From the NCBI GenBank assembly GCA_964606385.1, contig CAZSFZ010000002.1, positions 35,119-99,118 of the forward strand: 64,000 nt of DNA, written 5' to 3'. Origin of the DNA: an uncultured bacterium. Its GTDB lineage: Bacteria; Omnitrophota; Omnitrophia; Omnitrophales; Aquincolibacteriaceae. The notes beneath the pieces were generated by a model that was not told the origin of the DNA, made no database searches, and was given only the letters and a program-made list of their open reading frames with translations. Position numbers and translations under genes: made by a program. This document shows positions 14,232-58,671 of this stretch, piece after piece; the first letter of the stretch is position 1; each line of letters begins with the position of its first letter.

Positions 14232-14253
14232 GAGCGTTTCACTATCTCCCTAA

Positions 14254-14325
14254 GACTGCGCACCTTAAAATGAATATTGGCGCAGCATTGTACCGTTGAC
14301 CCTTAAAATTGAATATCAAACGGTG
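14254..14325. repeat. Two adjacent hairpins whose loops carry the motif CCTTAAAAT(T)GAAT
   Basis: 14256-14285 has stem ctgcgc/gcgcag with loop accttaaaatgaatattg. 14292-14324 has stem accgtt/aacggt with loop gacccttaaaattgaatatca. A third copy lies at 42466-42504. Confidence 0.6.
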
Positions 14326-15266: not shown

Positions 15267-15339
15267 TTTTAACGAAGTTGAAATTGGGGCAATCCCAACT
15301 GCCCTTCATGTAAAAAAATCTAACGTTGGGATAGGCGGG

Positions 15340-16311: not shown

Positions 16312-16313
16312 GT

Positions 16314-24334: not shown

Positions 24335-25409
24335 GGAGGACCCCTTGGATTTTTGAAAAAACCTCGCCCGGACCCAATTCTTTAAGACAGGCGATCGTCG
24401 GACACTGTTTATTATAACGGAATTTGTAATAACAGGGGCGGCAATCAAGGCCCTCCTTAAAAACAGCCCGGGCATCTTCCACGGGCGGGTAAGGCCCGTA
24501 AACTTCCGGAGGAACGGGTCCGTAGAACGCCACGAGCGGGACGCGAAGCGCGCGCGCCAAATGCACAAGGCCCCCGTCATTCCCGATAAAAAGCGCCGAC
24601 TTTTCAAGGACCTTCGCCGTTTGTGCCAGCTTCAGTTCCCCCGCCAGTACGATCGAGGGCGGCTTGATCATCGCCTGCAATTCCTCACAAAGCGCCCGTT
24701 CGGACCGACTTCCCAGGATCGCGACGCCGCGAAGGCCCCGCTCCGCCTGGATCTTCGCGATCAATGCCGCGAAGTTTTTCACGGGCCAGCGCTTGAAAGC
24801 GGCTTCCTTTCCCCAGGAATCCCCGCCTCCCGGAGCGACGGCGAGGAACCGTTCGGGAAGCAGTTTGAGCTTGTTCGCGACTTCCACCCCGATCAACGCG
24901 ACGGGTTTCGGAAAATAATATTCCAGAAAACGGTCCTCGACGGGGATGCCGGCCCTTTCCGCGAGGTCACAATAAAAATCCGCCGCGTGTTTTTTCCAGA
25001 AAGCCTCCGGGAGCGGGTAGCGGATGTTATGAAAAACCGCCCGGTTCTTGTACGCGAACCCCGCGCATTTCGGGACCCCAAGCAAGAACCGGCCCAGGAA
25101 GGCGTGCTCACGCCGAAGCGAGTAGTCCAGGATCAGATCGTAGTGTTTTGCACGCAGCTTTCGCCCCAGCTCCCACAGGTCCCGAAGATTTTGGAACGCA
25201 TTCTGGCGATGGGCACGGTCCTTGTCCACGACGAAAATCTCATTGATATGGGGATTGTTTTCCACGGCCTCGCGCGTCCGGGAACCCAAGAGCAGGTCCA
25301 CGGTCTCGACCGTCGGGATCAATCGCAGGGCCCGCATGACCGGCGTCACGAAAAGAAGGTCCCCGATCCCGTAAGGATGAACGATGAGCACCCGCCGAAG
25401 CGTTCTCAT
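24312..25409 (-). CDS. Glycosyltransferase family 9 (LPS heptosyltransferase-like), paralog 1
   Basis: The N-terminus has the GT9 motif RVLIVHPYGIGDLLFVTPVMRALR and the C-terminus reads GNDGGLVHLARALRVP. Length is 365 aa. Confidence 0.8.
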   Translation of the reverse strand: MRTLRRVLIVHPYGIGDLLFVTPVMRALRLIPTVETVDLLLGSRTREAVENNPHINEIFVVDKDRAHRQNAFQNLRDLWELGRKLRAKHYDLILDYSLRREHAFLGRFLLGVPKCAGFAYKNRAVFHNIRYPLPEAFWKKHAADFYCDLAERAGIPVEDRFLEYYFPKPVALIGVEVANKLKLLPERFLAVAPGGGDSWGKEAAFKRWPVKNFAALIAKIQAERGLRGVAILGSRSERALCEELQAMIKPPSIVLAGELKLAQTAKVLEKSALFIGNDGGLVHLARALRVPLVAFYGPVPPEVYGPYPPVEDARAVFKEGLDCRPCYYKFRYNKQCPTIACLKELGPGEVFSKIQGVLHGKTKDH

Positions 25410-26465
25410 TTAATGCATCTCCGGGACGGATCCGTGAAGAAGATCGCGCGCCGCGGCATAAACATCCTCCACGGCGATCTCATCGATGTAAGTGAATTTC
25501 CGCTCCGCCGCGGGAATATGAGAAACGTCTTTGGCGATCACCCGCCCGCGGCCTCCCAAAGGCCTCCAGCGTTCGGGTCCGAGCCCGGGTTCGTACCTTC
25601 CAAAAATGGAGACCACCGGCGTTTCGACGGCGGTCGCGATATGGACGGGCCCTGAATCATTCGAGATCAGCAGGGCTGCGCGTTTAAACAAGGCCCCAAG
25701 ATGCCCGAGCGAAAGTTTACCGCTCAGGTCCACCACGGGAATGTTTGTCCCCGCTTTCAGTTTTTGGACGGTCTCCCGGTCTTTGGCCGTTCCGATCGCG
25801 AGAAAAACATACGATCTTTCTTTCGCCATTTTCGTCACAAGCGCCGCGAAACGTTCCGCGGGCCACATTTTGGTCGCGTCACTTGCCGAAGGATTAAGCA
25901 CGATCCAGGGCCGGTCGTTCGGGATTTTATAAAATGCCAAAAGGTTTTCGAGCGAGCGGACCGCCCGGTTTGTCACAGGAAAAAAAAGACTTATTTTTTG
26001 CGGTGGAACGATCCCGAGAGGTTCCAGGAGGTCAAAAAGATATTCGGCCTCTTGTTTTTTCCCTTCTTTTTTGTCGTAGGGGTGGGCATGCGTGAGGGCC
26101 CAGGGAGCGCGGCGGGCATAACCGATGCGTACGGGGATCCCCGCGATCCAGGCGGCAAGGTGCATCCGATTCGTCCCGTGAGCGTGGATGACCAGGTCGA
26201 ATTTTTTATTCCCGAGGCTCTGGCTGAAATCAAGCTGCCCCCAAAAACCCCGCTCCTTCCCTTTTTTATCGTAAAGGATCGCTTCGTTCAGATACGGGTT
26301 CTCTTCGACGATCTCCCGGTGCTCGAGGAATACCAGGGCCGCGATCCATGCCCGCGGAAATTTTTCGCGCAGGGCTTTAAAAAGCGGGGTCGTGAGGACC
26401 AGGTCCCCGATACGGTCCGTCCGTGTGACGAGAATACGCGGAGCGTCAGGCAGCTTGATCGGCAT
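25410..26465 (-). CDS. Glycosyltransferase family 9 (heptosyltransferase-like), paralog 2
   Basis: RILVTRTDRIGDLVLTTPLFKALR and SNDSGPVHIATAV are present. Length is 351 aa. Confidence 0.8.
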   Translation of the reverse strand: MPIKLPDAPRILVTRTDRIGDLVLTTPLFKALREKFPRAWIAALVFLEHREIVEENPYLNEAILYDKKGKERGFWGQLDFSQSLGNKKFDLVIHAHGTNRMHLAAWIAGIPVRIGYARRAPWALTHAHPYDKKEGKKQEAEYLFDLLEPLGIVPPQKISLFFPVTNRAVRSLENLLAFYKIPNDRPWIVLNPSASDATKMWPAERFAALVTKMAKERSYVFLAIGTAKDRETVQKLKAGTNIPVVDLSGKLSLGHLGALFKRAALLISNDSGPVHIATAVETPVVSIFGRYEPGLGPERWRPLGGRGRVIAKDVSHIPAAERKFTYIDEIAVEDVYAAARDLLHGSVPEMH

Positions 26466-27408
26466 TCAGAAGCTCCAGCGAGAGCCGGACCACTTTTTCG
26501 GGTTTCAGACCGTGAAAACAGCTGCGCTCGGCGTAGGGCAATTTATCGGAACCGCAGGAACAGGCTGCGGCTTCTTCGCGCGCGATGCGGAATTTCGGTC
26601 CTTCATGCCCGTATTTTTCGTGGTTCGTCGGGCCGAAGATCCCGACGGTCGGCGTCCCCATCTCGGATCCAAGATGCATGATCGCGCTGTCGTTGGCGAT
26701 CACGAGCGCCGCGTTCGCGATCAGGGCCGCCGTTTCAGGGAGGATCAGTTCACCGCAAAGAACGCTCACAACTCCGGGAAGTTCGGACTCGATGCTGTCC
26801 GCGACCGGTTTTTCATTCAGCGTCCCGACCAAAAGGACTTTTTTTCCCGTTTTTTCATGAAGCGCCTTAATGACCTCTTTAAAGTATTTGACGGGCCAGC
26901 GCTTCCGTTCACTCGCGGCTCCCGCCGCCACCAGGATCCACCCGTTCTTTTCCGTCACCCCGAAGACTTCCAGCGTCCGCATGGCGAACACTTCATCCGC
27001 TTTATTGAAGAAAAGAAAAGTGGGCGGGACGGAAATGCCGGGCTCAACGGCCTCGAGCATTTCAAGATGGCGTTCCCGCATGTTGACCCGCGTGAATTTC
27101 CTGAAAAGAGGCGTTCGCTTCTTGCAGGAAACCAGGAACGGGATCGCGGTATTGCGAAGATCCACGACGAGGTCATACCGGGCTTTCCGAAGTTCCCCGA
27201 TAAATTTCAGTTTTTTCCAAAAAGAGGCTTTTTTGTCGTAGATCACGATCTTGTGGATGTCCGGACTCCGTTGCAGGACGCTTTGGGCGCGGGGACCGAC
27301 CACCACCGTAAGACGCGCTTCGGGATACTTCTTCGAAAGCGCCATGATCACGGGAGTCGTCAGGATCACATCCCCAAAATTACTTAAGGTCACCACAAGA
27401 ATGTTCAT
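26446..27408 (-). CDS. Glycosyltransferase family 9 (heptosyltransferase-like), paralog 3
   Basis: MNILVVTLSNFGDVILTTPVIMAL and ANDSAIMHLGSEMGTP are present. Length is 320 aa. Confidence 0.8.
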   Translation of the reverse strand: MNILVVTLSNFGDVILTTPVIMALSKKYPEARLTVVVGPRAQSVLQRSPDIHKIVIYDKKASFWKKLKFIGELRKARYDLVVDLRNTAIPFLVSCKKRTPLFRKFTRVNMRERHLEMLEAVEPGISVPPTFLFFNKADEVFAMRTLEVFGVTEKNGWILVAAGAASERKRWPVKYFKEVIKALHEKTGKKVLLVGTLNEKPVADSIESELPGVVSVLCGELILPETAALIANAALVIANDSAIMHLGSEMGTPTVGIFGPTNHEKYGHEGPKFRIAREEAAACSCGSDKLPYAERSCFHGLKPEKVVRLSLELLNADQAA

Positions 27409-28427
27409 GGCCGCCTCAGGACCCTTTCGATCGCGTCAAAAACTTCTTCGGGAACAATATGGGAAAGCCAGCCTTCTTCCGGAAGATCTTTGCCGAAAAA
27501 AGGCACCGGATATCCCGTCGGGACGTATTGTAACACGAGACTTTCGCCGCTCCCACGGGGTCCGGTGAGTTTGGGGTCCGTGGGGCCGAACAGGGCAACG
27601 ACCGGAGCCCCGACGCCGGAGGCGATATGCATGGGCCCGGAGTCTCCCGTCACAAGGCACGCGGCGTGTTTATAGACAGCCGCCGAAACGCGCAACCCCG
27701 TTTTCCCGACCAGGGAGATCACTTTGGCATTTCGGACCGAAGTGGCCAGCGCCTCCCAAAGCAGTTCGTCCTGGGAGGATCCCGTGACCACGACCGGAAG
27801 TTTCCACCTCATTTCGATCATCTCGGCAAGTGCCGCAAAATGTCCGACCGGCCAGCGCTTGGGCTCCCAATTGGCGCCTAAATGAAAACAAATATACCGA
27901 GAGTGTTTCCCGACACCGTGGGATTCAAGGATGCTCCGCGCGGCTTGCTCATCTTCTTCTTTGTAAAAAAACTGGTATTCTTTTTTGTCGGGAAGCTCAA
28001 ATCCCGCCCCGCGCATCATATTGAAGAAATAATCCAGCTGATGCATCAGTTGAGCGGGCTCCTGGACCGCCCGCGTCATAAACATCTTCCGCCCTTTTCC
28101 GTAGCCGATACGCTCTTTGACGCCCGCCATCGCTAAAAGCGCCGCGCGGGAACGGGAGCGATGGAAAAGATATCCTTGCTCCCAAGGCCCTTGTTTCCTT
28201 AACTCCATTAAAAATCCGGCCCGGGAGAGCCAGGAGCGGTGCGTGCTTTTTTCATCGAAACTTAAAAAACCCGAAACCGCAGGATGCGCTTCAAGGATCT
28301 CCCGGCAGCGCTCCGGGGCCATGCAAACGATCGAAGCCTCGGGATATTTTTTTTTGATGAGATCGAGCGCCGGCATCTGAAAAAGCAGGTCGCCGAGCCA
28401 ATTCTTCATCACCGCAAGGATCTTCAT
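27405..28427 (-). CDS. Glycosyltransferase family 9 (heptosyltransferase-like), paralog 4
   Basis: MKILAVMKNWLGDLLFQMPALDLI and TGDSGPMHIASGVGAP are present. Length is 340 aa. Confidence 0.8.
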   Translation of the reverse strand: MKILAVMKNWLGDLLFQMPALDLIKKKYPEASIVCMAPERCREILEAHPAVSGFLSFDEKSTHRSWLSRAGFLMELRKQGPWEQGYLFHRSRSRAALLAMAGVKERIGYGKGRKMFMTRAVQEPAQLMHQLDYFFNMMRGAGFELPDKKEYQFFYKEEDEQAARSILESHGVGKHSRYICFHLGANWEPKRWPVGHFAALAEMIEMRWKLPVVVTGSSQDELLWEALATSVRNAKVISLVGKTGLRVSAAVYKHAACLVTGDSGPMHIASGVGAPVVALFGPTDPKLTGPRGSGESLVLQYVPTGYPVPFFGKDLPEEGWLSHIVPEEVFDAIERVLRRP

Positions 28428-44435: not shown

Positions 44436-45297
44436 GCGCTTGAAGCAACGCCTTACGCATGACTTCGACCGGTGCCCTCTTCCCTGTCCAGTGTTCCAAG
44501 GCGCGGGCCCCCTGATAAAGCAGCATCCCGAGCCCGTTCAAGGTTTTATGCCCTTTCCTCTTCGCTCCACGAAGAAAAGGCGTCATCGCCGGATTGTAGA
44601 TCAGGTCCATGAAAAATATTTTTTTCGTGCTGCGGCGGGGGATCCATGCGTCCGGCATCACCCGCGGATCCCTGGGCTTGAGTCCCAACGGCGTCGCATT
44701 AATGATAACATCGGCTTTTTGAACGGCCTCCTTGACCTCCTCCGTTCCGGCCAAAACAGCCCTGAAAAGCACCTTTTTAAATAGCTTACGCATGTCCTGA
44801 GCGATCTTTCGCGCTTTTTCAGGAAAACAGTCCGTGATCAGGACCTCCCGAGCGCCCTCCCGCGCAAGACCGTAAACAACCGCCCGTGCCGCGCCGCCGG
44901 CCCCAAGCACCACGGCCCGCTTCCCCGCCGGACGGAACCCGCCGTCCTTCATGAGCGCGAGAAGGAAACCTTCCATGTCGGTATTTGTTCCGACCCATCG
45001 CTTCCCGCTCTTGAAAACCGTGTTCACCGCGCCGATCGCCCGGGCTTCCGGCCGTACCTGATGCAGATACTTCAGGACGGTTTCTTTATAGGGCACCGTC
45101 ACATTGAAACCGGAAAGAACGAGCTTCGAGGCCTGCTTCATGAGTTTTTTAAAAGCGGCGGGTGCGAGGTCCAGGACGATGTAGTTCGCGTCGATCCCGA
45201 GCTTCCGGAACGCGGCCTCGTGCATGAAGGGTGACAGCGTATGAGAAAGGGGGTGACCGAAGATCCCGTAAAGTTTGAAGGACTTTACCGTTTTCAC
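44416..45297 (-). CDS. aroE: Shikimate dehydrogenase
   Basis: The N-terminus has the shikimate-binding motifs YGIFGHPLSHTLSP and SGFNVTVPYK and the central NADP motif reads GAGGAARAV. Length is 293 aa. Confidence 0.85.
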   Translation of the reverse strand: MKTVKSFKLYGIFGHPLSHTLSPFMHEAAFRKLGIDANYIVLDLAPAAFKKLMKQASKLVLSGFNVTVPYKETVLKYLHQVRPEARAIGAVNTVFKSGKRWVGTNTDMEGFLLALMKDGGFRPAGKRAVVLGAGGAARAVVYGLAREGAREVLITDCFPEKARKIAQDMRKLFKKVLFRAVLAGTEEVKEAVQKADVIINATPLGLKPRDPRVMPDAWIPRRSTKKIFFMDLIYNPAMTPFLRGAKRKGHKTLNGLGMLLYQGARALEHWTGKRAPVEVMRKALLQALAGKGE

Positions 45298-46841
45298 ACC
45301 GGAGAGGGCTGGCTCGGGGCCCGTTGGGAATTCGCCGAAACTTTATTGAGCGCGAAAAGATACGCCCGGACGCTGGCCTCAATGATATCGGTGCTTGTGC
45401 CGCGGCCGGTCACTTCTTTAGAACCGATCTCCAATTTGACCAGCACTTCGCCCAAAGCGTCCTTACCGCCCGTGACCGATTGAAGGCCGTAATGGATCAA
45501 TTTAGCCTTGGAGTTCACGATCTTTTCGATCGCTTTATAACAGGCATCCACGGGACCGTCCCCGGTCGAGGTCGCCTCTTTGACTTTACCTTCATACGAA
45601 AGCTTGATCTGGGCGCAGGGCTTCGAACCGGTCTCCGAGACGACTTTCATGGACACCAGTTTCCACGTCTCCGGGATCTTGGCGATCTCGCTTTGCAGGA
45701 TCGCCTCGAGGTCCTCGTCAAAAATATATTTTTTCTTGTCCGCCAGGGCCTTGAATTGGACGAATGCCTGATCGAGCTCCTTGGGCGCCAAACGGAACCC
45801 GAGTTTTTTCACGCGAACTTCAAACGCATGTTTTCCGGAAAGTTTTCCGAGCATCAGCTGGCTCCCCGAAAGCCCGATCTTTTTTGGATCCATGATCTCG
45901 TAGGTCTGGCGTTTCTTGAGCACGCCGTCCTGATGGATCCCGGAAGCGTGCCAAAAGGCGTTCCGCCCGACGATCGCCTTGTTGGGCTGGACGACCATAC
46001 CCGTCAAGTTGGACACCAAGCGCGACGCCTTCGTGATCTCCGAAAGCTTGATGTCTGTATAACAGTGCATGAAATCCGGACGCGTATCGATCGTCATGGC
46101 GATCTCTTCGATGGAGGCGTTCCCCGCCCGTTCGCCGATGCCGTTCACGGTACATTCGACCTGGTTCGCTCCGGCCAACACCGCGGCTAGGGAATTCGCG
46201 GTCGCGAGCCCGAGATCGTTGTGGCAGTGGACTGAAAGCACGACCCTTTTGCCGAGGCCCGGGTTTTTCTTGATCAGGAACCGGATCAACTCCGTGAATT
46301 CCTGCGGCACGGTATACCCCACCGTATCGGGGATATTGATCGAAGTCGCTCCGGCGTGGATCGCGGCCCGGACCGTTTCGGCCAAAAACTCACGCTCAGT
46401 ACGGGACGCGTCCTCGGGAGAAAATTCGATATATTTGAAATCCTTGGCGGCGGATTTGATCTGCTGCTCCACCATCGCAAGGATCTCTTTTTTGTTTTTC
46501 TTGAGCTTGAACTCGCGATGGATCTGCGAGGTCGCGAGAAATACATGAAGGCGTTTTTTCGCCGCGCCCTCGAGCGCCCTGCGGCAGGCATCGATATCCC
46601 TCGGGATCATCCTGGAAAGACCGCAGATCACGGGTTTGCGCACACTTTCCGCGATCATCGAGACGGCCTTCATCTCTCCCGGCGAGGAGGCCGGAAAACC
46701 CGCTTCAATCACATCGACATTCAGCCGCTCAAGCTGGCGCGCGATCTTCAGCTTCTCGTCGGGCGTGAGCGATGCCCCGGGCGACTGTTCGCCGTCCCTG
46801 AGCGTGGTGTCGAATATATATATCTTACGTTTGTTTTTCAT
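45294..46841 (-). CDS. leuA: 2-isopropylmalate synthase
   Basis: The TIM barrel has IFDTTLRDGEQSPG and HCHNDLGLA motifs. A C-terminal LeuA regulatory domain is present. Length is 515 aa. Confidence 0.9.
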   Translation of the reverse strand: MKNKRKIYIFDTTLRDGEQSPGASLTPDEKLKIARQLERLNVDVIEAGFPASSPGEMKAVSMIAESVRKPVICGLSRMIPRDIDACRRALEGAAKKRLHVFLATSQIHREFKLKKNKKEILAMVEQQIKSAAKDFKYIEFSPEDASRTEREFLAETVRAAIHAGATSINIPDTVGYTVPQEFTELIRFLIKKNPGLGKRVVLSVHCHNDLGLATANSLAAVLAGANQVECTVNGIGERAGNASIEEIAMTIDTRPDFMHCYTDIKLSEITKASRLVSNLTGMVVQPNKAIVGRNAFWHASGIHQDGVLKKRQTYEIMDPKKIGLSGSQLMLGKLSGKHAFEVRVKKLGFRLAPKELDQAFVQFKALADKKKYIFDEDLEAILQSEIAKIPETWKLVSMKVVSETGSKPCAQIKLSYEGKVKEATSTGDGPVDACYKAIEKIVNSKAKLIHYGLQSVTGGKDALGEVLVKLEIGSKEVTGRGTSTDIIEASVRAYLFALNKVSANSQRAPSQPSPV

Positions 46842-46879: not shown

Positions 46880-46945
46880 CGGGGCCATGGGCCACGTCTT
46901 CCGGGCCACGAAAACGCTTTTTCGTGGTCCGTGTCCCGTGGCCCT
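46880..46945. repeat. GGGCCACG/CGTGGCCC-based repeat cluster with a hairpin, in the ilvC-leuA spacer
   Basis: A GGGCCATGGCCC palindrome is followed by GGGCCACG repeats in both orientations. A 12-bp hairpin (ggccacgaaaa-cgct-ttttcgtggtcc) and gtgtcccgtggccc follow; on the plus strand the outer arms GGGCCACG (46903-46910) and CGTGGCCC (46937-46944) pair and are followed by TTTTAATTT. A 16-nt block (gggacacggacCacg) is shared with the rsmA insertion. Confidence 0.6.
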
Positions 46946-46951
46946 TTTAAT

Positions 46952-47953
46952 TTATTTCGCTTTTTTGATGAATTCCATCATCCCGCGGAGCTGCGCGCCG
47001 ACCTTCTCGATCCCGTGCTGTTCGCAGGCTTCGCGCATTTTCTTGAAGTTCGGACGGCCTTTCTTGTTCTCTTCCATCCATTCCTTCGCGAATTTCCCGT
47101 CCACGATCTCCTTCAGCATCTTTTTCATTTCCTTGTGGGTCTCTTTCGTGATCACGCGAGGCCCGCGGGTGTAGCCGCCGTATTCCGCGGTATCCGACAC
47201 GCGTTTGTACATGCCGCTGATCCCGTGCACGAACATCGCATCCACGATGAGCTTCACTTCGTGGAGGCATTCAAAATACGCCATCTCGGGCTGGTATCCG
47301 GCTTCGACCAGCGTGTCGTAACCGGCCGTGATGAGGTCGCTCAAACCGCCGCAAAGAACCGCCTGCTCGCCGAAAAGATCCGTTTCGGTCTCTTCCTTGA
47401 ACGTGGTTTCGATCACACCCGCGCGGGCGCCGCCGATCGCTTTCGCGTACGCGAGGCCGACCTGGAGCGCTTTGCCGCTGGGGTTCTGTTTCACGGCCAC
47501 CAGGCACGGCACGCCGCCGCCTTCGACGAACTGGGAACGCACGAGCGAGCCCGGGCCTTTCGGCGCGACCATGAACACGTCGATCTCTTTCGCCGGCTGG
47601 ATATAACCGAAATGGATATTGAACCCGTGGGAAAAACAGAGCGCTTTCCCCGCCTTCATGTGAGGGGCGATATGTTTTTCATAGATCTCGGCCTGGAGAT
47701 GGTCCTGCGTCAGGATCTGGATGATGTCCGCCTGCTGGGCCGCTTCGCTCGCGGAGATAGGTTTGAAACCGTCTTTGACCGCCTGTTCGTAGTTCGGCGT
47801 TCCGGGGATCTCGGACACGATCACGTCCACACCCGAATCGCGGAGGTTCAGGCCCTGACCGCGGCCCTGGATCCCGTAACCGATGATGGCGACTTTTTTT
47901 CCTTTGAGAAGGTTCAGGTCCGCGTCTTTATCGTAATAAATTTTAACTGCCAT
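46952..47953 (-). CDS. ilvC: Ketol-acid reductoisomerase
   Basis: MAVKIYYDKDADLNLLKGKKVAIIGYGIQGRGQGLNLRDSG matches IlvC. Length is 333 aa. Confidence 0.95.
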   Translation of the reverse strand: MAVKIYYDKDADLNLLKGKKVAIIGYGIQGRGQGLNLRDSGVDVIVSEIPGTPNYEQAVKDGFKPISASEAAQQADIIQILTQDHLQAEIYEKHIAPHMKAGKALCFSHGFNIHFGYIQPAKEIDVFMVAPKGPGSLVRSQFVEGGGVPCLVAVKQNPSGKALQVGLAYAKAIGGARAGVIETTFKEETETDLFGEQAVLCGGLSDLITAGYDTLVEAGYQPEMAYFECLHEVKLIVDAMFVHGISGMYKRVSDTAEYGGYTRGPRVITKETHKEMKKMLKEIVDGKFAKEWMEENKKGRPNFKKMREACEQHGIEKVGAQLRGMMEFIKKAK

Positions 47954-48553: not shown

Positions 48554-50239
48554 TTAAGCCATATCCATGATCTGGTCCAGGGCATTCCCGGCCGGCACCA
48601 TGGGATACACATTCGCTTCTTTGGAAACAAGACATTGGACAACGACAGGGCCCTTGTGGGCCAGCGCCTTTTTGATCGCCGGCACGACTTCGCTTTTCTT
48701 CCGGACCTTAAGCGCCAGAATGCCGTAGGCCCCCACCAGTTTCACGAAATCGGGATTGGACGGACCGATCACGGAACCCGAATAACGCCGCTTGTAAAAA
48801 AGTTGCTGCCATTGACGGACCATCCCGTAGTACCCGTTATCCAGGACAAAAGTCTTTACCGGCACTTTGTTGTAAGCCGCGGTCGCGAGCTCCGTCATGG
48901 TCATCTGGAACGATCCGTCCCCTTCAATGCAGACCACCGTCTCTTTGGGTTTTCCGATCTGGGCCCCCACCGCCGCGGGGAAACCATACCCCATCGTTCC
49001 CAGCCCGCCGGAGGTGAGCATCGTACGCGGCCGGTCGAATTGATACCATTGCGCTGTCCACATCTGATGCTGCCCGACGCCCGTCACCACGATCGCCCGG
49101 TGCTTCGTCAGTTCCCCGATCTTTTCGATCACATACGCCGGATGGATCGCTTGGCCCGCGCTTTCGTACTTCATCGGATGTTTTTGTTTCCAGGCGGCGA
49201 TCTGGGAAAGCCATTCCTTCAGCTCCGGACGCTTGTCCGCCACGAGCGCGTTCAGCCTTTCCATCGCCTGTTTTACATCGCTCACCACGGGCACATGCAC
49301 CCGCACGGTCTTGGAGATCGACGCGGGATCGATGTCGATATGAATGATCTTCGCGTGCGGCGCGAATTTCGCCACATTGCCGGTCACGCGGTCGTCAAAA
49401 CGCGCGCCGACGCCGATCAGGACGTCCGAATTCTGCACCGCGTAATTGGCGAAATGCGTGCCGTGCATCCCGAGCATTCTCAAAGAGGACGCGTGCGTTT
49501 CCGGAAAAATCCCGAGGCCCAGGATCGTCGTCGTGACCGGGATCCCCGTTCTTTCGGCGAATTCCAGGATCGTTTTTTCCGCGCCGGAGATGATCGCGCC
49601 ACCGCCCACATAAAGCACGGGCCGCTTGCTCGCGCGGATCAATTCGGCCGCCTTGGAGATCTGTTCCTCCACGCCTGGACATTCCACATCCGGCTGGTAA
49701 CTTCGGATAAAAACATCCTTCGGCCACACGAACTCCGTTTGGGCGCGGCTGATGTCGACCGGGAAATCGATCAACACGGGACCGGGCTTTCCGGTCGTCG
49801 CGATATAGAACGCTTCGCGCACGGTCTTCGCGATGTCGCGGACATCCTTGATCAAAAAATTGTGTTTGGTCACGGGACGCGTGATCCCGACGATGTCGAC
49901 TTCCTGGAACGCGTCGCTTCCGATCGCGTTCGTGGTCACCTGCCCGGTGATGCAGACCATCGGCACGGAATCCATGTATGCCGTCGCAAGGCCCGTCACG
50001 GTATTCGTCGCCGCCGGCCCCGAGGTTACGAGACAAACGCCTGGACGTCCCGTCGCGCGGGCATAACCATCGGCCATGTGCGTGGCGCCCTGTTCGTGCT
50101 TGGTCAGGATCAGCTTGATCTTGGAATCATAGAGCACATCGTAGGTAGGCAGAATAACCCCGCCCGGGAGCCCGAACACATGCTCCACGCCCTCTTTTTC
50201 AAGACACTTGATCAGGATCTGCGCGCCTGTTAATTTCAT
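48554..50239 (-). CDS. ilvB: Acetolactate synthase large (catalytic) subunit
   Basis: The ThDP motif GLGTMGYGFPAAVGA and the N-terminus LTGAQILIKCLEKEGVEHVFGLPGG are present. Length is 561 aa. An AGAGGAAA SD is present. Confidence 0.9.
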   Translation of the reverse strand: MKLTGAQILIKCLEKEGVEHVFGLPGGVILPTYDVLYDSKIKLILTKHEQGATHMADGYARATGRPGVCLVTSGPAATNTVTGLATAYMDSVPMVCITGQVTTNAIGSDAFQEVDIVGITRPVTKHNFLIKDVRDIAKTVREAFYIATTGKPGPVLIDFPVDISRAQTEFVWPKDVFIRSYQPDVECPGVEEQISKAAELIRASKRPVLYVGGGAIISGAEKTILEFAERTGIPVTTTILGLGIFPETHASSLRMLGMHGTHFANYAVQNSDVLIGVGARFDDRVTGNVAKFAPHAKIIHIDIDPASISKTVRVHVPVVSDVKQAMERLNALVADKRPELKEWLSQIAAWKQKHPMKYESAGQAIHPAYVIEKIGELTKHRAIVVTGVGQHQMWTAQWYQFDRPRTMLTSGGLGTMGYGFPAAVGAQIGKPKETVVCIEGDGSFQMTMTELATAAYNKVPVKTFVLDNGYYGMVRQWQQLFYKRRYSGSVIGPSNPDFVKLVGAYGILALKVRKKSEVVPAIKKALAHKGPVVVQCLVSKEANVYPMVPAGNALDQIMDMA

Positions 50240-50294
50240 CCTTTGTTTTCCTCTTGGATCTGCGGAAATGTCCCGCTTGAGCTACGGAAGGAAT

Positions 50295-51335
50295 TTAAAC
50301 CGCGAAAAAGTCTTTAACGCCCTTCTTGAATTTTCCCTTCCAGGTCTTCTGATTTTGCGCCACGGTGACCTCCCAGCTTTGCCCCATGGATTCCATCCAG
50401 TCAAAGGCCGCCTTTTTAAATTCCAGATCGTTCGCTTCTTCATCGGTCTTGTATTCCACCAGATGGATCGGATAGCCCTTCTGCTGGAGTTTGTCGAACC
50501 AGGCCTGATTCTTGGCCCGTGCATCGCTATCCGCTTTCAAGGCGACATAGAACGGCACTTGGTCCGCCGCGTCGGAGTGTGGGTCGATCAGCTGATAAAA
50601 AGGCCCATCCCACGCCTGCCCGATCAGCGTGGCAGCCGTGAATTCCTTGGGATATTTGACCGCTAAATAGGCCGCGTAATGAGCGCCGAGGTCCTTGCCG
50701 ACGATATAAACCCTCTTTTTGCTGATCGGAAAACGTTCGATCATATCGTTCTTCAAAGACAACATCCATTCATCCAGCCGGTAGGGCGTGTCCCCTTCCT
50801 TCGGCCAAAGAGAATAGGGCGCCAGAAGGAAAATGCTTTTGCGCTGCGCCAACCCCGTCAGGTATTCGATCTGCTGCTCCGCTTTCGCGTCTTCGGCCGG
50901 GGCGATGATGACGAGCGGATAAGTCCGGTCGGTTTTATAATCCTTCGGCGCGAAAAGAAAAACAGGATATTTGTATCCGCTTACTTCCACCAATCCGGAA
51001 GGATTCGAGGCCGTAAACACCTGGGTTTCCGGCATGTCCCTGGAGGCGTCTTGAGACGCTGCTGTAGCGGGCACTGCCGGCATTAAAGGGGCGACAGCAG
51101 CCGCAACCGGCTGGCTCTCGGAAACCGGCAAAGCCACGCTTTGCGCGGACTGGGCCTCCGCGGCAGCTACCACATCTTCCAGCACCTGTTCTTCTTCCTG
51201 CTGGGGCAAGGATTCATCATAATTGGCCGCGGCTTTTTGCTCTTCCACGGGCGTTAAAGCGCGCACGGAGACGCTCCCCACAAAAAGAAATAATCCTAAA
51301 AAAAAGAAAAAAATACTCTTGCGATAGTTTTCCAT
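50295..51335 (-). CDS. Secreted alpha/beta-hydrolase-fold (esterase-like) protein with a Pro/Ala/Gln-rich linker; catalytic Ser and His apparently not conserved
   Basis: The signal peptide is MENYRKSIFFFFLGLFLFVGSVSVRA, followed by a low-complexity linker. The nucleophile-elbow position reads VGKDLGA (Asp in place of Ser). The C-terminal HLVEYKTDEE lacks the usual GH. An AAGAGG SD lies upstream of ATG 51335. Confidence 0.5.
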   Translation of the reverse strand: MENYRKSIFFFFLGLFLFVGSVSVRALTPVEEQKAAANYDESLPQQEEEQVLEDVVAAAEAQSAQSVALPVSESQPVAAAVAPLMPAVPATAASQDASRDMPETQVFTASNPSGLVEVSGYKYPVFLFAPKDYKTDRTYPLVIIAPAEDAKAEQQIEYLTGLAQRKSIFLLAPYSLWPKEGDTPYRLDEWMLSLKNDMIERFPISKKRVYIVGKDLGAHYAAYLAVKYPKEFTAATLIGQAWDGPFYQLIDPHSDAADQVPFYVALKADSDARAKNQAWFDKLQQKGYPIHLVEYKTDEEANDLEFKKAAFDWMESMGQSWEVTVAQNQKTWKGKFKKGVKDFFAV

Positions 51336-51417
51336 TTGAGACCTCTTGATCTCGTCTGCCCGCACAGGCAGTTGGGGACCTGAATTGACGTAACTTGCTG
51401 GAACAAAAGAGGTTATT

Positions 51418-51445
51418 ATTATATGGATAAGCTCCGGAATGTCAA
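51418..51445 (-). promoter_or_regulatory. Consensus sigma70 promoter TTGACA-16-TATAAT upstream of the secreted hydrolase-like gene
   Basis: The minus strand reads ctgcgTTGACAttccggagcttatccaTATAATaataacc. The -35 lies at 51440-51445 and the -10 at 51418-51423. Confidence 0.6.
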
Positions 51446-51493
51446 CGCAGCTGAAAATCGCGGGAAATCGCCTTTTTTATGAAAAAAGCGGGG

Positions 51494-53949
<2,456 letters not shown>

Positions 53950-53953
<4 letters not shown>

Positions 53954-54648
53954 TCAGATCTCCTTTTGGGCAATACGCTCTTCCGGTCCTTCCCCGCGAC
54001 CAGAACCACCATTTCGCCCTTCCGGGGCTTACGTGTCATATCCTGAATAAGTTCGGACAAACGGCCCCGCAACACTTCTTCGAATTTTTTCGTGAGCTCG
54101 CGCGCGACCGCGCCTTCGCGGTCGCCGAAAACCTCCAGCATGTCCTGAAGCGCTTTCACGATACGGAAAGGCGATTCAAAGAATATCAGTGTTTCCTCGC
54201 GGCCCGCAAGCGCTTCGAGCTCATGCCGCCGGCGTTGCCCCTTATTTGAAAGAAAACCGAGAAAGCTGAAACTGTCGGTCGGAAGACCGCTCAAGACCAG
54301 CGCCGTTGTGACGGCGGAAGGCCCAGGCAGGACCTCCATCGGCAGTCCTTGTGCCAGCGCTTCATGGACGATCTGGAACCCAGGATCGGACACAAGCGGT
54401 GTCCCGCCGTCCGAAACCAGGGCCAGGCGCTTTCCTTCTTTTAAAAGAGCCGTAAGCCCCGCGGTTTTTTGCGGAGCACTGTGGTCGTGATAGCTGAGAA
54501 GCGGCTTCGAAATTTCATAATGATGTAACAGCTTCTGCGTCTGCCGCGTATCTTCGCAAACAATGATGTCCGCCTGCTTCAAGGCCTCCAGCGCCCGCAA
54601 GGTGATATCGGAAAGATTGCCGATCGGGGTCGGGACAACGGTCAGCAT
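53950..54648 (-). CDS. rsmI: 16S rRNA (cytidine1402-2'-O)-methyltransferase
   Basis: MLTVVPTPIGNLSDITLRALEALKQADIIVCEDTR is the tetrapyrrole-methylase-like fold. Length is 232 aa. Confidence 0.85.
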
Positions 54649-54653
54649 AAGGC

Positions 54654-55661
54654 TCAGTGATTCCTTTCAAGCACGTAATCCGCGAGCTGTTCCAGGCTGG
54701 TTCTAAAAACGGACGGCGGAAAGATCTCGAGCTCGCGTTTGGCCAGCGTCATGAAGGTTCTGGCTTTTCCGAGGGCGTAATCCAGGGCCCCGCTCTTCTG
54801 GAGGGTTTCCCGCAATATCGAAAGACGCCTGGACTGGCTCCGGGAGTAAAGGATGCGGACCACTTTATCGCGCTCCCCGGACGCGAGGCAGTGGATCACC
54901 GGCAGCGTGTAGACCCCTTCTTCAAGGTCCGAACCGAGGGTCTTGCCGAATTCGCTTTCGGTTCCGTAAAAATCCAACGCGTCGTCCGTGATCTGGAACG
55001 CCATCCCGAAAAAAGTCCCGAACCGGCCGAGCGCTTCGGCTTTTTCGGGCTCGATCCCCCAGATGAGCGCCCCGGTCTGAAGCGCGCACGCGAGTAGTGA
55101 AGCGGTCTTCTTTCGAATGATCTCAAGATGAATCTCTTCGGTCAGATTGATGTTCTTTTTTTCGCTGATCTCCTGAACCTCTCCTTCGCAGATCTCGCCG
55201 GCGGTCTTCAGGAAAAGCGGGATGATCTTGTCGTTCCCGTAACGGAAGATCGTGACGATCGCGCGGTCGTGGAAATAATCCCCCGCAAGAACCGCAGCCT
55301 GCGGCCCTGATTTCACATGAAGCGCGGAGACGCCGCGCCGCAAAGGCGCCGAATCAATGATATCGTCATGGATCAATGTCGCAGCGTGAAAGATCTCGGT
55401 CGCGGCAGCCAGATAAAGCTCCGCGGTTTCGTTGCGTTCGGAAGGGATCTCCTGTCCGGGTTTCAGAGAGCGGGCGAGGCCGGCGCCCAGAAGGATCAGG
55501 GCGGGCCTCAGGAGTTTTCCGTTTTTGGAGAAAAAATGGTCGACCATCTCGCGCATCTTGCCGATGGGCGTGTCCAGCGTCTCCCGGACCAGAGAAGGGA
55601 CCCGCAAAATACCGGACTGAATGGGGGCGTAAATGTCTTTAAGCGTCAGCGTGGTTCTCAT
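54654..55661 (-). CDS. ispB: Polyprenyl diphosphate synthase (octaprenyl/heptaprenyl-type trans-IPPS)
   Basis: The first Asp-rich motif is LIHDDIID and the second is ITDDALD. Length is 335 aa. Confidence 0.8.
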   Translation of the reverse strand: MRTTLTLKDIYAPIQSGILRVPSLVRETLDTPIGKMREMVDHFFSKNGKLLRPALILLGAGLARSLKPGQEIPSERNETAELYLAAATEIFHAATLIHDDIIDSAPLRRGVSALHVKSGPQAAVLAGDYFHDRAIVTIFRYGNDKIIPLFLKTAGEICEGEVQEISEKKNINLTEEIHLEIIRKKTASLLACALQTGALIWGIEPEKAEALGRFGTFFGMAFQITDDALDFYGTESEFGKTLGSDLEEGVYTLPVIHCLASGERDKVVRILYSRSQSRRLSILRETLQKSGALDYALGKARTFMTLAKRELEIFPPSVFRTSLEQLADYVLERNH

Positions 55662-55712
55662 AGGAGGCTGTATTATAACAAAAAGGTCTTTTCCCCTGAG
55701 GGATATTTCCGG

Positions 55713-56612
55713 TCACGGATTCTGAGGGTCCAGCGCTTCTGCCAGGCGGAGGAATTGTTCGAGCGAAAGGGTTTCGCCGCGAAGCTTGGGGGGGAAACCG
55801 AGTTTCCCGAAAAGGGCCTCAAGCTCTTCCCGGTTTCGTCGGGGCTTAAGGGCCTGGGTGAACAGCGCCAAAAGGGTCTTACGGCGCTGGCTGAACGCGA
55901 TGCGGACAACCTCGAGAAGAAATGCTTCGTTTTTCACCCCGACAGAACTTTTAAAATCGTACCGGATGACCCGCGACATCACCTCCGGCGGAGGCAGAAA
56001 ACATTTAGGGGAAACGTCAAAAAGGAACTCGGTATCCCCGTAAAGTTTGCCCGTAACGCTCAGGCGTCCATAGTCTTTTTCCCCGGCCTTCGCAGTAAGG
56101 CGTGCCGCGACTTCTTTTTGAAGCATCAAAACGGCGCTGGAAAAGACCTTCGCGTGCTCCACGAGATGAAAAAGAATGGGTGTGCTGATGTAGTAAGGAA
56201 GATTCCCGATCACTTTGATTTTAGGGACACGTCCGTCGGGACACGGACACGCGAAGGGATCCCGTGGCCCGTGGCCCGTGGCCCGTGGCGCCAATAACTC
56301 TGTCAAGTTGGTCTTAAGGATATCAGCATGGATCAATTGAAACCGGTCCGGGTGTTCCGGCAAAAGTTCCCGGGTCAAAATATCAACAAATTTGGGATCC
56401 GTCTCCACCGCTAAAAGCGGAAAGCCCCGGCCCAACACTTCGCGCGTAACGGCTCCGAGCCCCGGTCCGATCTCGAGGACGCGCTCCCCCGGCCGAAGGT
56501 CCAGCGCGTCCACGATCTTGCGGATCGTATTGGGATCCATGAGAAGATGTTGCCCCAAGTGGCCGCGGATCCGGAGGTTGTATTTTTTGAGTAGTTCTAT
56601 TTGCGTGAGCAT
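55713..56612 (-). CDS. rsmA: 16S rRNA (adenine1518/1519-N6)-dimethyltransferase, with a ~18-aa repeat-encoded insertion
   Basis: GQHLLMD, VLEIGPGLGAVT and IGNLPYYISTP are conserved. The inserted ...RATGHGPRDPFACPCPDGRVP... precedes IGNLPY and is encoded by the repeat at 56223-56290. Confidence 0.85.
   Translation of the reverse strand: MLTQIELLKKYNLRIRGHLGQHLLMDPNTIRKIVDALDLRPGERVLEIGPGLGAVTREVLGRGFPLLAVETDPKFVDILTRELLPEHPDRFQLIHADILKTNLTELLAPRATGHGPRDPFACPCPDGRVPKIKVIGNLPYYISTPILFHLVEHAKVFSSAVLMLQKEVAARLTAKAGEKDYGRLSVTGKLYGDTEFLFDVSPKCFLPPPEVMSRVIRYDFKSSVGVKNEAFLLEVVRIAFSQRRKTLLALFTQALKPRRNREELEALFGKLGFPPKLRGETLSLEQFLRLAEALDPQNP
56223..56290. repeat. GGGACACG/GTGGCCC repeat block inside the rsmA coding region
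   Basis: The plus strand reads gggacacgtccgtcgggacacggacacgcgaagggatcc, followed by the heptamer GTGGCCC x3 plus GTGGCGC (56263-56290). A 16-nt block is shared with the ilvC-leuA spacer repeat (46880-46945). Confidence 0.65.
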
Positions 56613-57601
56613 TTCGCGAGAACGGCTGTCTTGGCAAGACGGAGCGCCGCGAGCATCGAAGAGGCGTCCGCTTTGCCCTGGTAGGCGATATCGAAAGCCG
56701 TCCCGTGGTCCGGAGAAGTGCGGATGTAAGGAAGCCCGAGCGTCACGTTCACACCGTCATGGAACGCCACAAGCTTGAACGCCGTGAGGGCCTGATCGTG
56801 ATACATGGCGATCACGCCGTCGTATTTACCGTGATAGGCAGCATGAAAAAGAAGGTCCGCCGAAAAAGGACCGCAAGCGTGAACGCCTTTCCGGCAGGCG
56901 GCGCGGACCGCGGGCGCGATGACTTTTTCTTCTTCACCCCCGAATTCCTTCCCATGAGGATTCAGCGCGCAGACGGCGATCTTTGGTTTTTTGATGGCAA
57001 GCCCGTGCCTGAGCATTTCCTCCGTTAAAAGGATCTTTTCCAGGATCCCTTTGGAGGTGAGATGGGCACTCACTTTTTTGAGCGGTACATGGATCGTGGC
57101 AAGCGTCACGTTCAGACGGGGGCTTACGAACATCATGGCAAAACGCCGGGCCTTGGCCGTTTCGGCGAGGAATTCTGTGTGCCCGATGAATTTTTTATCC
57201 AATAGACGGATCGCAGCCTTGTTCACAGGCGCTGTCACGATCGCATCCACGACACCTTTTTGAGCCAACGAAGCGGCCTTCTCGACCGCGGCAAGCGCCT
57301 GACGACCGTTCTCGCGGCAGAGCTTCCCCGTTTGAAAGGTTCCCCCGCCCGGAAGCTCCTCTGAAATGTCATAAAAATAAATATTCCCGGGACGAAAGGT
57401 TCCGGAAGTGACGGACGAAACGGTTTTGAAAGGAAGCCAGAGACCTGTTTTTTGGCATAGGGTCTTAAACGCCTGACGGGAGCCCAGAAGAAGGTACGCG
57501 AAACGCCTGGAAGGTTTTTCTTTTTGGAGGGCCTTCACGACAATCTCAGGACCAATGCCTCCCGGATCGCCCATCGTCACTGCCAGCACGGGACAGTTCA
57601 T
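56597..57601 (-). CDS. pdxA: 4-hydroxythreonine-4-phosphate dehydrogenase
   Basis: MNCPVLAVTMGDPGGIGPEIVVKAL...TAPVNKAAI...HGTAFDIAYQGKADASSM matches PdxA. The start was trimmed to ATG 57601, giving an ATGA overlap with the surA stop. Confidence 0.85.
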   Translation of the reverse strand: MNCPVLAVTMGDPGGIGPEIVVKALQKEKPSRRFAYLLLGSRQAFKTLCQKTGLWLPFKTVSSVTSGTFRPGNIYFYDISEELPGGGTFQTGKLCRENGRQALAAVEKAASLAQKGVVDAIVTAPVNKAAIRLLDKKFIGHTEFLAETAKARRFAMMFVSPRLNVTLATIHVPLKKVSAHLTSKGILEKILLTEEMLRHGLAIKKPKIAVCALNPHGKEFGGEEEKVIAPAVRAACRKGVHACGPFSADLLFHAAYHGKYDGVIAMYHDQALTAFKLVAFHDGVNVTLGLPYIRTSPDHGTAFDIAYQGKADASSMLAALRLAKTAVLAKCSRK

Positions 57602-58569
57602 TTGATCGAAATGTAAGCCGCCTTTTTCACTTCTTCCATCCAGTCGCGGAACCTTGCGGCGCTTTTCTCCTGGAAAAGGTATCCCGCGATCTGGTCTTTC
57701 ACTTCCTCGAAATAACGGATTTTCTCGGGCTCGCGCGCTTCGATGCGGAACATATGGTAGCCGACCGGTGTTTCCACGATCTCCGTCACCTCGCCGATAG
57801 AGGCCTTGAAGATCACGTTGTCCACCGATTCGATCATGGCGCCGCGGTCGATCCATTCCCCGACACCCCCCTGTTTAGCGTGGCTGTCTTCGGAAAAATC
57901 CTTCACGATCTGGTCGAAATTCCGGTACATGCGGATCTTTTGCGCCAAGAGCTCGATCCGCTGTTTGGCCTCTTCGTCTGTCAGGCCTTTTTCGCGCGCC
58001 TCACCGCTTTTCTTGATCGTAAGCGATTTCACCTGAACGCGTTCCTTGGTCTTGAACTGATCGGGATTATTCTTGTAGAACTCCTCGACTTCGGCCGGAG
58101 ACACGATCACTTTGGAGCGGATCTCCCGGTCCTGGAGCTGGCGGACCATCGCCTGCTTTTTAAGGCGTTCCCGGAGGGCTTTCATGGTCAAGCCTTCCCG
58201 TTCGAGCAATTCATCCAGCGCCTCGGGTTTTTCCATTTTGGATTTGAAGGTCTGGAGCTCTTTTTCAACTTCCTCGTCCTTGACCTCGATCCCCATCGCG
58301 ACCGCTTCCTGGTACACAAGCTTATCCTCGATCATCTGGCTCAACATCTTGTGCCGGATCTCGCCCATCACCTGGACAAGCTCCTGGCCGCTGTATTCCT
58401 TGCTGTATTGTTCATAGAGCGGTCTTAAAAAAGTATCCAGCTCCGCTTGCGTGATGACTTCATCATTAACGACCGCCACCACCCGGTCCAGGAGCTCTTC
58501 CTGGGCCGCATAGGCCGGGGACACGGAGAGCGCCATAGATAATATAAGGAGGAAAATGAGCTTTTTCAT
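57598..58569 (-). CDS. surA: Periplasmic chaperone/peptidyl-prolyl isomerase SurA family
   Basis: The signal peptide is MKKLIFLLILSMALSVSPAYA. An N-terminal chaperone domain and a C-terminal parvulin-like PPIase (GEVTEIVETPVGYHMFRI) follow. The start was trimmed to 58569. Confidence 0.75.
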   Translation of the reverse strand: MKKLIFLLILSMALSVSPAYAAQEELLDRVVAVVNDEVITQAELDTFLRPLYEQYSKEYSGQELVQVMGEIRHKMLSQMIEDKLVYQEAVAMGIEVKDEEVEKELQTFKSKMEKPEALDELLEREGLTMKALRERLKKQAMVRQLQDREIRSKVIVSPAEVEEFYKNNPDQFKTKERVQVKSLTIKKSGEAREKGLTDEEAKQRIELLAQKIRMYRNFDQIVKDFSEDSHAKQGGVGEWIDRGAMIESVDNVIFKASIGEVTEIVETPVGYHMFRIEAREPEKIRYFEEVKDQIAGYLFQEKSAARFRDWMEEVKKAAYISIK

Positions 58570-58632
58570 GAGGCCGGTATTATACAACAAATAGAAGAAC
58601 TCGGGGAACGGGAAGCGTTTAACGCCGGCGGA

Positions 58633-58657
58633 CCACCCCACCTACGAGGTGGGGTGG
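58633..58657. other. GC-rich perfect hairpin (11-bp stem, 3-nt loop) 14 nt downstream of the mfd stop
   Basis: ccaccccacct-acg-aggtggggtgg forms the hairpin. No U-tract follows on either strand. Confidence 0.5.
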
Positions 58658-58671
58658 GTTGATGTTCACTG

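Follow-up and report, generated by a model that had tools for sequence, protein, structure and literature searches.

How do short GC-rich heptamers come to form hairpins both in the spacer between two genes and inside the reading frame of a housekeeping gene of the same genome? The question is raised by a 64-kb stretch of DNA (hereafter the window) from Candidatus Omnitrophota, whose best source-named RsmA homologs are labelled Candidatus Omnitrophica. In this DNA such units occupy the ilvC–leuA spacer and, in frame, rsmA, the gene for the 16S rRNA A1518/A1519 dimethyltransferase. A first-pass annotation, made from the sequence alone, had likened the two loci to repetitive extragenic palindromic (REP) elements that colonize spacers and tolerant loops of genes. 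Comparison of the window with syntenic loci from related genomes, numbered L003, L004, L005 and so on, shows that heptamer-periodic hairpins in Omnitrophota are a little-described class of REP-like repeats, present in spacers and in tolerant protein loops.

Two clusters of inverted heptamers in the window

Both repeat motifs examined are over-represented in the window and concentrated at these loci. GGGCCACG occurs eight times against 2.8 expected, with six of the eight in clusters (46889, 46903 and 46937-; 56263-, 56270- and 56277-), and GGGACACG occurs eight times against 2.1 expected, with three within clusters. A scan with the degenerate unit GGNCACG/CGTGNCC recovered exactly two clusters of at least three units in 64 kb, at 46882–46944 and 56223–56290, and Tandem Repeats Finder called a period-7 array in each (Table 1). 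The two clusters have a common layout of tandem heptamers, loop and inverted heptamers. Direct reading and these counts bear out the proposal that GC-rich repeat units lie both in the ilvC–leuA spacer and in frame in rsmA, and the inverted arms, built from common units, mark the two loci as the same kind of element. Some details required revision: the palindrome given as GGGCCATGGCCC reads GGGGCCATGGGCC, which is palindromic but imperfect by one extra G, and the shared block of 16 nt with one mismatch resolves into an exact 12-nt match, CGGGACACGGAC, followed by a 1-nt indel, with the copies on opposite strands. A repeat search of the whole window revealed no longer repeats linking the spacer and rsmA loci.

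The spacer hairpin begins 7 nt past the ilvC stop codon, with TAA ATTAAAA preceding the first unit, and reads on the coding strand GGGCCAC GGGACAC GGACCAC G – AAAAAGCGTTTT – C GTGGCCC GGAAGAC GTGGCCC, then ATGGCCCC. Its RNA is predicted to form a nested hairpin with an energy of −36 kcal/mol and a z of −4.18, a fold that 0 of 200 shuffled sequences equalled. The 12-bp hairpin described earlier is present, but only as part of this larger structure, which comprises an 8-bp outer stem, an internal loop and 3 + 9 bp; the internal loop is conserved and arises from the unpaired middle unit of the 3′ arm. An Rfam search of the spacer returned no match, on which ground a T-box, a leader and a riboswitch were each rejected for the region upstream of leuA.

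The rsmA element and its protein loop

On the coding strand the rsmA element reads GCGCCAC (GGGCCAC)x3 GGGATCCCTTCGC GTGTCC GTGTCCC GACGGAC GTGTCCC, with a C·U mismatch in each unit pair, and it is translated as ..APRATGHGPRDPFACPCPDGRVP.. (also given as ..PRATGHGPRDPFACPCPDGRVP..). The units GGGCCAC, GGGACAC, GGACCAC and GGAAGAC are free of stop codons in every phase on both strands, so that a copy stays open whenever its length is divisible by three. The encoded peptide is the heptamer read in its three phases, (GGGCCAC)3 giving GPRATGH and (GTGTCCC)n giving VSRVPCP. A Cys-containing functional motif in the insert was rejected, because CPCP results from translating GTGTCCC in successive phases.

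Across 36 aligned Omnitrophota RsmA proteins, 51–76% identical to that of the window, the stretch preceding the invariant GNLPY motif ranges from almost nothing to ~35 extra residues. Pairwise gaps against three insert-less orthologs (L006, L007 and L008) assign 15 extra residues, TGHGPRDPFACPCPD, to the window protein, and this gap is the sole window-specific insertion of at least eight residues in the ~18-kb syntenic block. The comparison with Bacillus subtilis KsgA (6ifs) gives ~14 residues. The net length is accordingly 15 residues rather than the ~18 first estimated. The insert is absent from many RsmA orthologs, including these three and most 283-aa proteins. The first-pass annotation would have been undermined had only two copies existed and had RsmA relatives shared the segment; no examined ortholog has it, and further copies occur elsewhere.

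The AlphaFold 2 model of the window RsmA has a mean predicted local distance difference test (pLDDT) score of 89.7. Residues ~108–131 are modelled as coil between a helix (103–107) and the GNLPY strand (132–137), with pLDDT values of 54–65 that fall below 50 at 112–115. The alignment and the model agree with the earlier view of the segment as an in-frame, lineage-specific insertion directly before GNLPY, and the insert, as modelled, occupies a tolerant loop of low-confidence coil.

Two independent Logan assemblies (SRR15237811 and SRR15237810) match the window DNA at 100% identity from 50108 to 58660. This stretch takes in the rsmA element and not the ilvC–leuA spacer; the identity excludes artefactual assembly of the rsmA element, an explanation that was rejected on this ground. 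No array length polymorphism separates the two Logan assemblies at the element. The sense (minus) strand of 56261–56289, and with it the mRNA, reads GGGCCACGGGCCACGGGCCACGGG, in which the canonical G-quadruplex pattern G3N4G3N4G3N4G3 can be recognized by eye; in the spacer copy there are only two G3 tracts.

Other lineages also carry insertions in RsmA. At the codon position of the window's insert, five related loci (L139, L140, L003, L004 and L005) hold unrelated, strongly folding palindromes of −23 to −52 kcal/mol, and other RsmA sites hold copies of an ~85-nt repeat resembling a transposable element of the miniature inverted-repeat type (MITE). RsmA is thus a recurrent landing place, most likely because its loops tolerate insertion, and the site before GNLPY may be read either as an insertion hot spot or as a selected structure.

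Table 1. Heptamer elements and their host genes in the window
Feature	Position	Strand	Basis
Heptamer-periodic hairpin, ilvC–leuA spacer	46882..46944	−	Direct sequence reading, Tandem Repeats Finder, RNA fold
Spacer 5′ arm, coding strand GGGCCAC GGGACAC GGACCAC(G)	46923..46944	−	Tandem Repeats Finder, period 7, 3.1 copies
Spacer 3′ arm, coding strand CGTGGCCC GGAAGA CGTGGCCC	46889..46910	−	Sequence, RNA fold
In-frame heptamer hairpin element within rsmA	56223..56290	−	Sequence, Tandem Repeats Finder, RNA fold; absent from insert-less orthologs
Perfect tandem CCCGTGG x4.1, (GGGCCAC)n on the coding strand	56261..56289	−	Tandem Repeats Finder, 4.1 copies, 100% matches, score 58
Opposite arm, GGGACAC-type units (GGGACACGTCCGTCGGGACACGGACACG on the + strand)	56224..56251	−	Sequence, unit scan
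ilvC (ketol-acid reductoisomerase), upstream of spacer hairpin	46952..47953	−	Pfam KARI_N + KARI_C
leuA (2-isopropylmalate synthase), downstream of spacer hairpin	45294..46841	−	Pfam HMGL-like, HCS_D2, LeuA_dimer
rsmA (16S rRNA A1518/A1519 dimethyltransferase), host gene	55713..56612	−	Pfam RrnaAD 2.5e-51; PDB KsgA matches

Period-7 hairpins in related Omnitrophota

In the relatives L003, L004 and L005, no tandem-repeat period other than seven stands out, and period 7 is dominant in L134 as well. The relatives' arrays are inverted pairs placed directly behind stop codons, with the plan (unit)n, an A/T-rich loop and (reverse-complement unit)n, and paired period-7 arrays of this kind are held by approximately one-third to one-half of the spacers of at least 40 nt in L003, L004 and L005. 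Unit types vary from spacer to spacer, with several per genome, and include GGGGAAC/GTTCCCC, GGTCAAC/GTTGACC, TAGGGTR/CTAAACC and GACCACA/TCTGTGG, together with GTCTGAA, GTACGGC and GACTAGA.

Every examined relative with a real ilvC–leuA spacer has a periodic hairpin there, the unit differing in each case: (GGTCAAC)4 with its inverse in L005 (−41.7 kcal/mol, z −7.35), GCGCAAA-type units of period 7 in L006 (z −3.1) and 8-nt GCCGCAAR units in L009 (z −4.0). Because orthologous spacers keep periodic hairpins while differing in unit, the structure is best described as old and concertedly evolving. This distribution points to the window's spacer hairpin being a positional feature of long standing whose sequence has turned over in concert, and it contradicts the suggestion that the spacer copy was a fresh colonization.

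Arrays often overlap gene 3′ ends and are then translated as C-terminal tails. The RsmA tails ARGMGNGERFR (L005) and TTDCRPQTAD (L004) are translated heptamers, as are the tails ARGTGNG.. and ..RDSGLVPRDSS... Tails of RsmA vary in length, with arrays at 6870–6902 in L005, 10897–10930 in L004, 10874–10894 in L003 and ~1090–1182 in L139, and in these relatives the RsmA ORF (open reading frame) extends into the 5′ arm of the hairpin downstream of it. Directly behind hairpins, ~9–10 nt upstream of the next ATG and with no Shine–Dalgarno sequence, lies a box resembling an extended −10 element, TTGTATAAT (in the window, TTGTTATAAT), at 55662–55712 (minus strand) in the window, ~7860 and 10950 in L003, ~7885 and 10985 in L004 and ~3745 and 6940 in L005; this arrangement suggests leaderless transcripts. 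Possible remnants of other heptamer units, GGGTCAACGGTACAA and GGGGAACGGGAAGCG, were noticed in window spacers at 14232–14315 and ~58590–58620.

Copies of the window variant in other genomes

Species-representative genomes scanned for (GGGNCAC)3 gave at least 120 loci among the matches listed, the window's own genome lying outside them. These arrays occur in many GC-rich phyla, with Actinomycetota and Lysobacterales dominant among the matches listed, and one Omnitrophota locus, L035, is among them. In L035 a single large ORF crosses at least five heptamer hairpins in frame, and the five element-encoded segments of its protein are all missing from eight homologs (alignment A2). The best match of this protein in the protein collection has 46% identity.

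A search of JGI metagenomes for the specific two-arm pattern gave nine loci, two of which, L131 and L134, correspond to the L035 locus. The in-ORF copy of L035 and L134 reads, on the coding strand, GGGCCACGGGACACGGGACACG AAAAGCG.. CGTGGCCCGGAGAACGTGGCCC, and the window spacer element aligned to it reads GGGCCACGGGACACGGACCACG AAAAAGCG.. CGTGGCCCGGAAGACGTGGCCC. The two are identical at ~20 of 22 positions in each arm (~90%), and they also agree in the order of three different units per arm, in the middle units that do not pair and in how the loop begins. A further copy lies directly behind the stop codon of a 150-aa archease-like gene (L130/L138) and has in common with the window spacer an 18-nt block, CGTGGCCCGGAAGACGTG, that includes the odd unit GGAAGAC. 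Within L134, the 18-nt non-repetitive loop is identical in two hairpins of GGATGRC units. Two CCACG-unit hairpins occur on the short contig L137, and the four high-GC matches are probably due to chance.

At the sequence level, the shared arm order, middle units and loops argue for copying between sites and genomes, because such details are hard to reach by independent slippage. Kin elements behind a stop codon and inside an ORF of other Omnitrophota uphold the REP-like placement in spacers and tolerant loops put forward initially; the mobility proposed with it did not stand as an observation. L035 and the window are probably different genomes, and the metagenomes that hold L035 did not return the window's spacer element. 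The tetranucleotide correlation of 0.936 between the window and L035 is uninformative, as L005, a different genome, gives 0.985. Scans of viral contigs gave no match to the two specific element patterns and hence no sign of a phage vehicle.

Outside Omnitrophota the same architecture was noticed in L116 (Acidobacteriota metagenome-assembled genome (MAG) MFD03726.bin.2.19), where inverted period-7 pairs of several units lie within 8 kb and GGGACAC x9.4 faces GTCCCGT x25, and in L091 (a Gemmatimonadales MAG), with ACGGTCA/GACCCGT and TGAAGGC/TTCAGCC inverted pairs. One Lysobacterales MAG (JALHRS01; L045, L052, L071, L095, L097 and L115) is rich in long GGGGCAC heptamer arrays, in keeping with the published excess of heptamers in Xanthomonas.

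Comparison with known repeat systems

The elements resemble REPs and bacterial interspersed mosaic elements (BIMEs) in being short GC-rich imperfect palindromes behind genes or within operons, in plausibly forming RNA hairpins, in having multiple families per genome and in occurring occasionally in frame. REPs are known inside genes, in frame, as judged against shorter homologs, and carry GTAG/CGTC tags (Di Nocera et al. 2013, PMC3733652). A REP is a single stem-loop of 20–40 nt with a stem of 5–13 bp and a conserved tetranucleotide tag, GTAG or CGTC, left unpaired at one end; REPs of the GTAG type are tied to REP-associated tyrosine transposases (RAYTs). Copy numbers of REPs run from tens to thousands per genome, and the 64-kb window has two elements. 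Elements of the window type are instead nested or segmented hairpins of 56–70 nt with arrayed arms; neither window element has GTAG or CTAC, and GACG/CGTC occurs only inside the arms (GGAAGACGTGG; ACGTCCGTCGGG), never as a terminal tag.

The nearest structural analogue is found in Xanthomonas. According to Rehm et al. 2015 (PMC4692102), these genomes contain intergenic GGGAATC heptamer arrays in 70–75 convergent pairs per genome, capable of forming stem-loops or cruciforms, with the array type conserved between species and its length varying. The window elements share G-rich tandem arrays, with tandem units of exactly 7 nt in one arm of each element (Table 1), and closely convergent arrays with stem-loop potential; the element class as a whole is mostly intergenic, as is the spacer copy, but the rsmA copy and the L035 ORF copies are not. 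Xanthomonas genomes have one dominant unit each, whereas Omnitrophota, another phylum, have several unit types per genome. Placement behind stop codons, translated C-terminal tails and in-frame ORF copies, all present in Omnitrophota, did not appear in the consulted passages on Xanthomonas.

Rickettsia palindromic elements (RPEs) lie in frame in unrelated housekeeping genes and add a peptide at fold-compatible sites (PMC10969869), and the rsmA element is like them in entering an ORF in frame at a structurally tolerant site. RPEs differ in their length of ~100–150 bp, their conserved encoded peptide, their restriction to Rickettsia and their lack of heptamer periodicity, and they have no sequence similarity to the window elements; the rsmA insert is ~68 nt long, belongs to Omnitrophota and encodes heptamer phases. 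Heptanucleotide repeats of Calothrix, cited in PMC4692102, and the TAACTGA repeats of Beggiatoaceae and cyanobacteria (PMC4679880) are likewise abundant intergenic tandem heptamers of unexplained origin, some overlapping ORF ends. They are mostly direct arrays upstream of genes, with inverted pairs being rare (one in orange Guaymas ‘Maribeggiatoa’ BOGUAY and a few in Nostoc), and TAACTGA, unlike the window units, holds stop codons that preclude read-through. MITEs such as Correia, ERIC and the Coxiella QMITE are similarly small non-autonomous palindromes in spacers, sometimes fused in frame to ORFs, but are bounded by defined terminal inverted repeats with target-site duplications; the heptamer hairpins, whose arms are arrays, show neither. 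Our literature search found no paper linking Omnitrophota with such repeats.

Origin and persistence of the elements

We favour, with a probability of roughly 0.6, a joint reading in which both loci belong to one REP-like palindromic class with heptamer arms, an RNA role at 3′ ends, concerted arm evolution and spreading variants, the rsmA copy being a passenger. The element plan, (unit)n, loop and (reverse-complement unit)n, would produce a long segmented hairpin as RNA or as single-stranded DNA. In the Omnitrophota clade these hairpins normally sit directly behind stop codons, and they would act as 3′-end or intercistronic RNA stem-loops, perhaps through partial termination or protection from 3′ exonucleases, as in Escherichia coli REP/BIME; by this analogy an RNA 3′-end function is most likely. 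The arms may evolve in concert through replication slippage in 7-nt steps combined with copying of one arm from the other, and these two processes are proposed to be the reason why orthologous spacers keep the hairpin yet differ in unit. Particular sequence variants may in addition reach new sites and genomes, a mobility that we infer from the shared details described above. The rsmA copy would be an instance of such spread, or else a secondary expansion, in the surface loop before motif IV; a length divisible by three, and units that lack stop codons whatever the phase or strand, would have let it persist. It is probably a passenger that RsmA tolerates, with its hairpin now decaying, and not an adaptation of the enzyme.

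Several observations weigh against this joint reading. A family within the genome is not evident, as the degenerate scan of the 64-kb window gave no third heptamer cluster and the genome is sparse, like L007 and L008, with most spacers short and array-free; nearly all of the arrays carried by the relatives have been lost from it. Intrinsic terminators combine a GC-rich hairpin with a U-run on the transcribed strand; the terminator scan did not call the spacer hairpin on the coding strand, where it is followed on its 3′ side by AUGGCCCCGUUUC with no U-run, the T-run being found only on the antisense strand. The rsmA element folds at −36.2 kcal/mol with a z of only −1.27, no better than shuffled sequence. 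Since (GGGNCAC)3 is common in GC-rich phyla, shared units alone are weak evidence of common descent. No target-site duplication is present at either window element, no empty-site/filled-site pair was found, and no transposase turned up, although none was examined and the window ORFs were not screened exhaustively.

Much of this would suit a purely local origin, in which each array grows from a chance GC-rich seed by 7-nt slippage and quasi-palindrome (template-switch) correction, nothing moves and the resemblance between loci and genomes reflects only the favouring of slippage-prone, stop-free units. Variation of the unit from one spacer to the next, and among orthologous spacers too, fits such an origin, as do the perfect 4.1-copy tandem in rsmA, typical of recent slippage, the independent rise of (GGGNCAC)3 in Streptomyces, Lysobacterales, Acidobacteriota and Gemmatimonadota, the lack of a visible target-site duplication or transposase and the unrelated hairpins at the same RsmA site in other lineages. 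Convergence would, however, have to mimic non-repetitive detail, namely the unit order, unpaired middle units and loop start common to the window spacer and the L134/L035 copy; it would also have to account for the identical 18-nt loop of the two L134 GGATGRC hairpins and for the 18-nt block with the odd unit GGAAGAC in the window spacer and L130. We regard local origin as a doubtful but serious alternative. Selection on a structure in the rsmA mRNA or DNA, whether a hairpin or a G3N4 G-quadruplex motif serving as a pause, attenuator or protein-binding site with the peptide as by-product, would explain why five lineages hold strong unrelated hairpins at the same codon position and why the rsmA sense strand has its G-tract sequence; G-rich GGGAATC heptamers of Xanthomonas were studied as putative quadruplex-forming sequences by Rehm et al. 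2015 (PMC4692102). With many orthologs lacking any insert (L006, L007, L008 and most 283-aa proteins) and the window's own rsmA hairpin weak, such selection seems improbable.

The (GGGCCAC)4 run could also be a contingency locus, in which adding or deleting a single 7-nt unit would shift the rsmA frame and switch 16S m6,2A1518/1519 methylation on or off, thereby affecting kasugamycin sensitivity and the checking of ribosome biogenesis. The run is a perfect tandem in an ORF with a unit length that is no multiple of 3, and heptamer simple sequence repeats are known for phase variation in other bacteria (PMC12721329). Yet there are only ~4 units, the length is the same in three assemblies from two sequencing runs, the element class is mostly intergenic and non-repetitive hairpins occupy the same site in other lineages, which together leave a phase-variation switch quite improbable. 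Chance low complexity or an assembly artefact might be suspected in a GC-rich genome (56%) with short motifs, but is hardly credible given motif counts of 3–4 times expectation concentrated in two places, a spacer hairpin z of −4.2, 100% identity of the rsmA region in two independent assemblies and homologous elements in other genomes. A bolder proposition is that the heptamer hairpins are a distinct, phylum-spanning element class generated by a dedicated mechanism that builds, symmetrizes and copies 7-nt arrays, and are the default 3′-end structure in some Omnitrophota. It is suggested by the occurrence of the architecture in Omnitrophota as well as in Acidobacteriota and Gemmatimonadota loci, and we consider it unlikely.

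Other repeats

The second, MITE-like family of ~85 nt has ends GTCCCAA...TTGGGAC and core GCCCCAATTTC (alignment A3), with six copies in five genomes at 70% mean column identity. The window copy (15262–15345, minus strand) lies between a SIS/CBS-domain gene (15340–16335) and a lipid A acyltransferase gene (14316–15266). In L035, the copies at 6638–6728 and 7468–7560 are nested in heptamer hairpins, between units after ..ACG, and are read in frame; in L006, a copy in rsmA after RYVFR constitutes a 28-aa in-frame RsmA insert; and further copies lie in L003 and L005 spacers. A direct-repeat family (D2) consists of a 46-nt motif present four times between 24750 and 27861 of the window at ~1-kb spacing and 61–72% identity. 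It lies inside four consecutive minus-strand ORFs of ~1 kb each (24312–28427), which are probably tandem paralogous genes.

Implications for Omnitrophota genomes

Omnitrophota are uncultured, and hairpins behind approximately one-third to one-half of the longer spacers in some members represent a candidate terminator or mRNA-stability signal. That bacteria have an excess of 7-nt repeats has been on record, unexplained, since 2007 (Mrazek et al. 2007, cited in PMC4692102), and orthologous hairpins with differing units are good material on slippage and arm-to-arm copying. For annotation, heptamer elements disrupt gene calling and inflate protein length variation in MAGs. Through the in-frame copies in rsmA and the large ORF, this repeat class supplies new disordered segments and C-terminal tails, as RPEs do in Rickettsia. 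If the phylum-spanning class were real, such hairpins would routinely remodel protein C-termini and internal loops.

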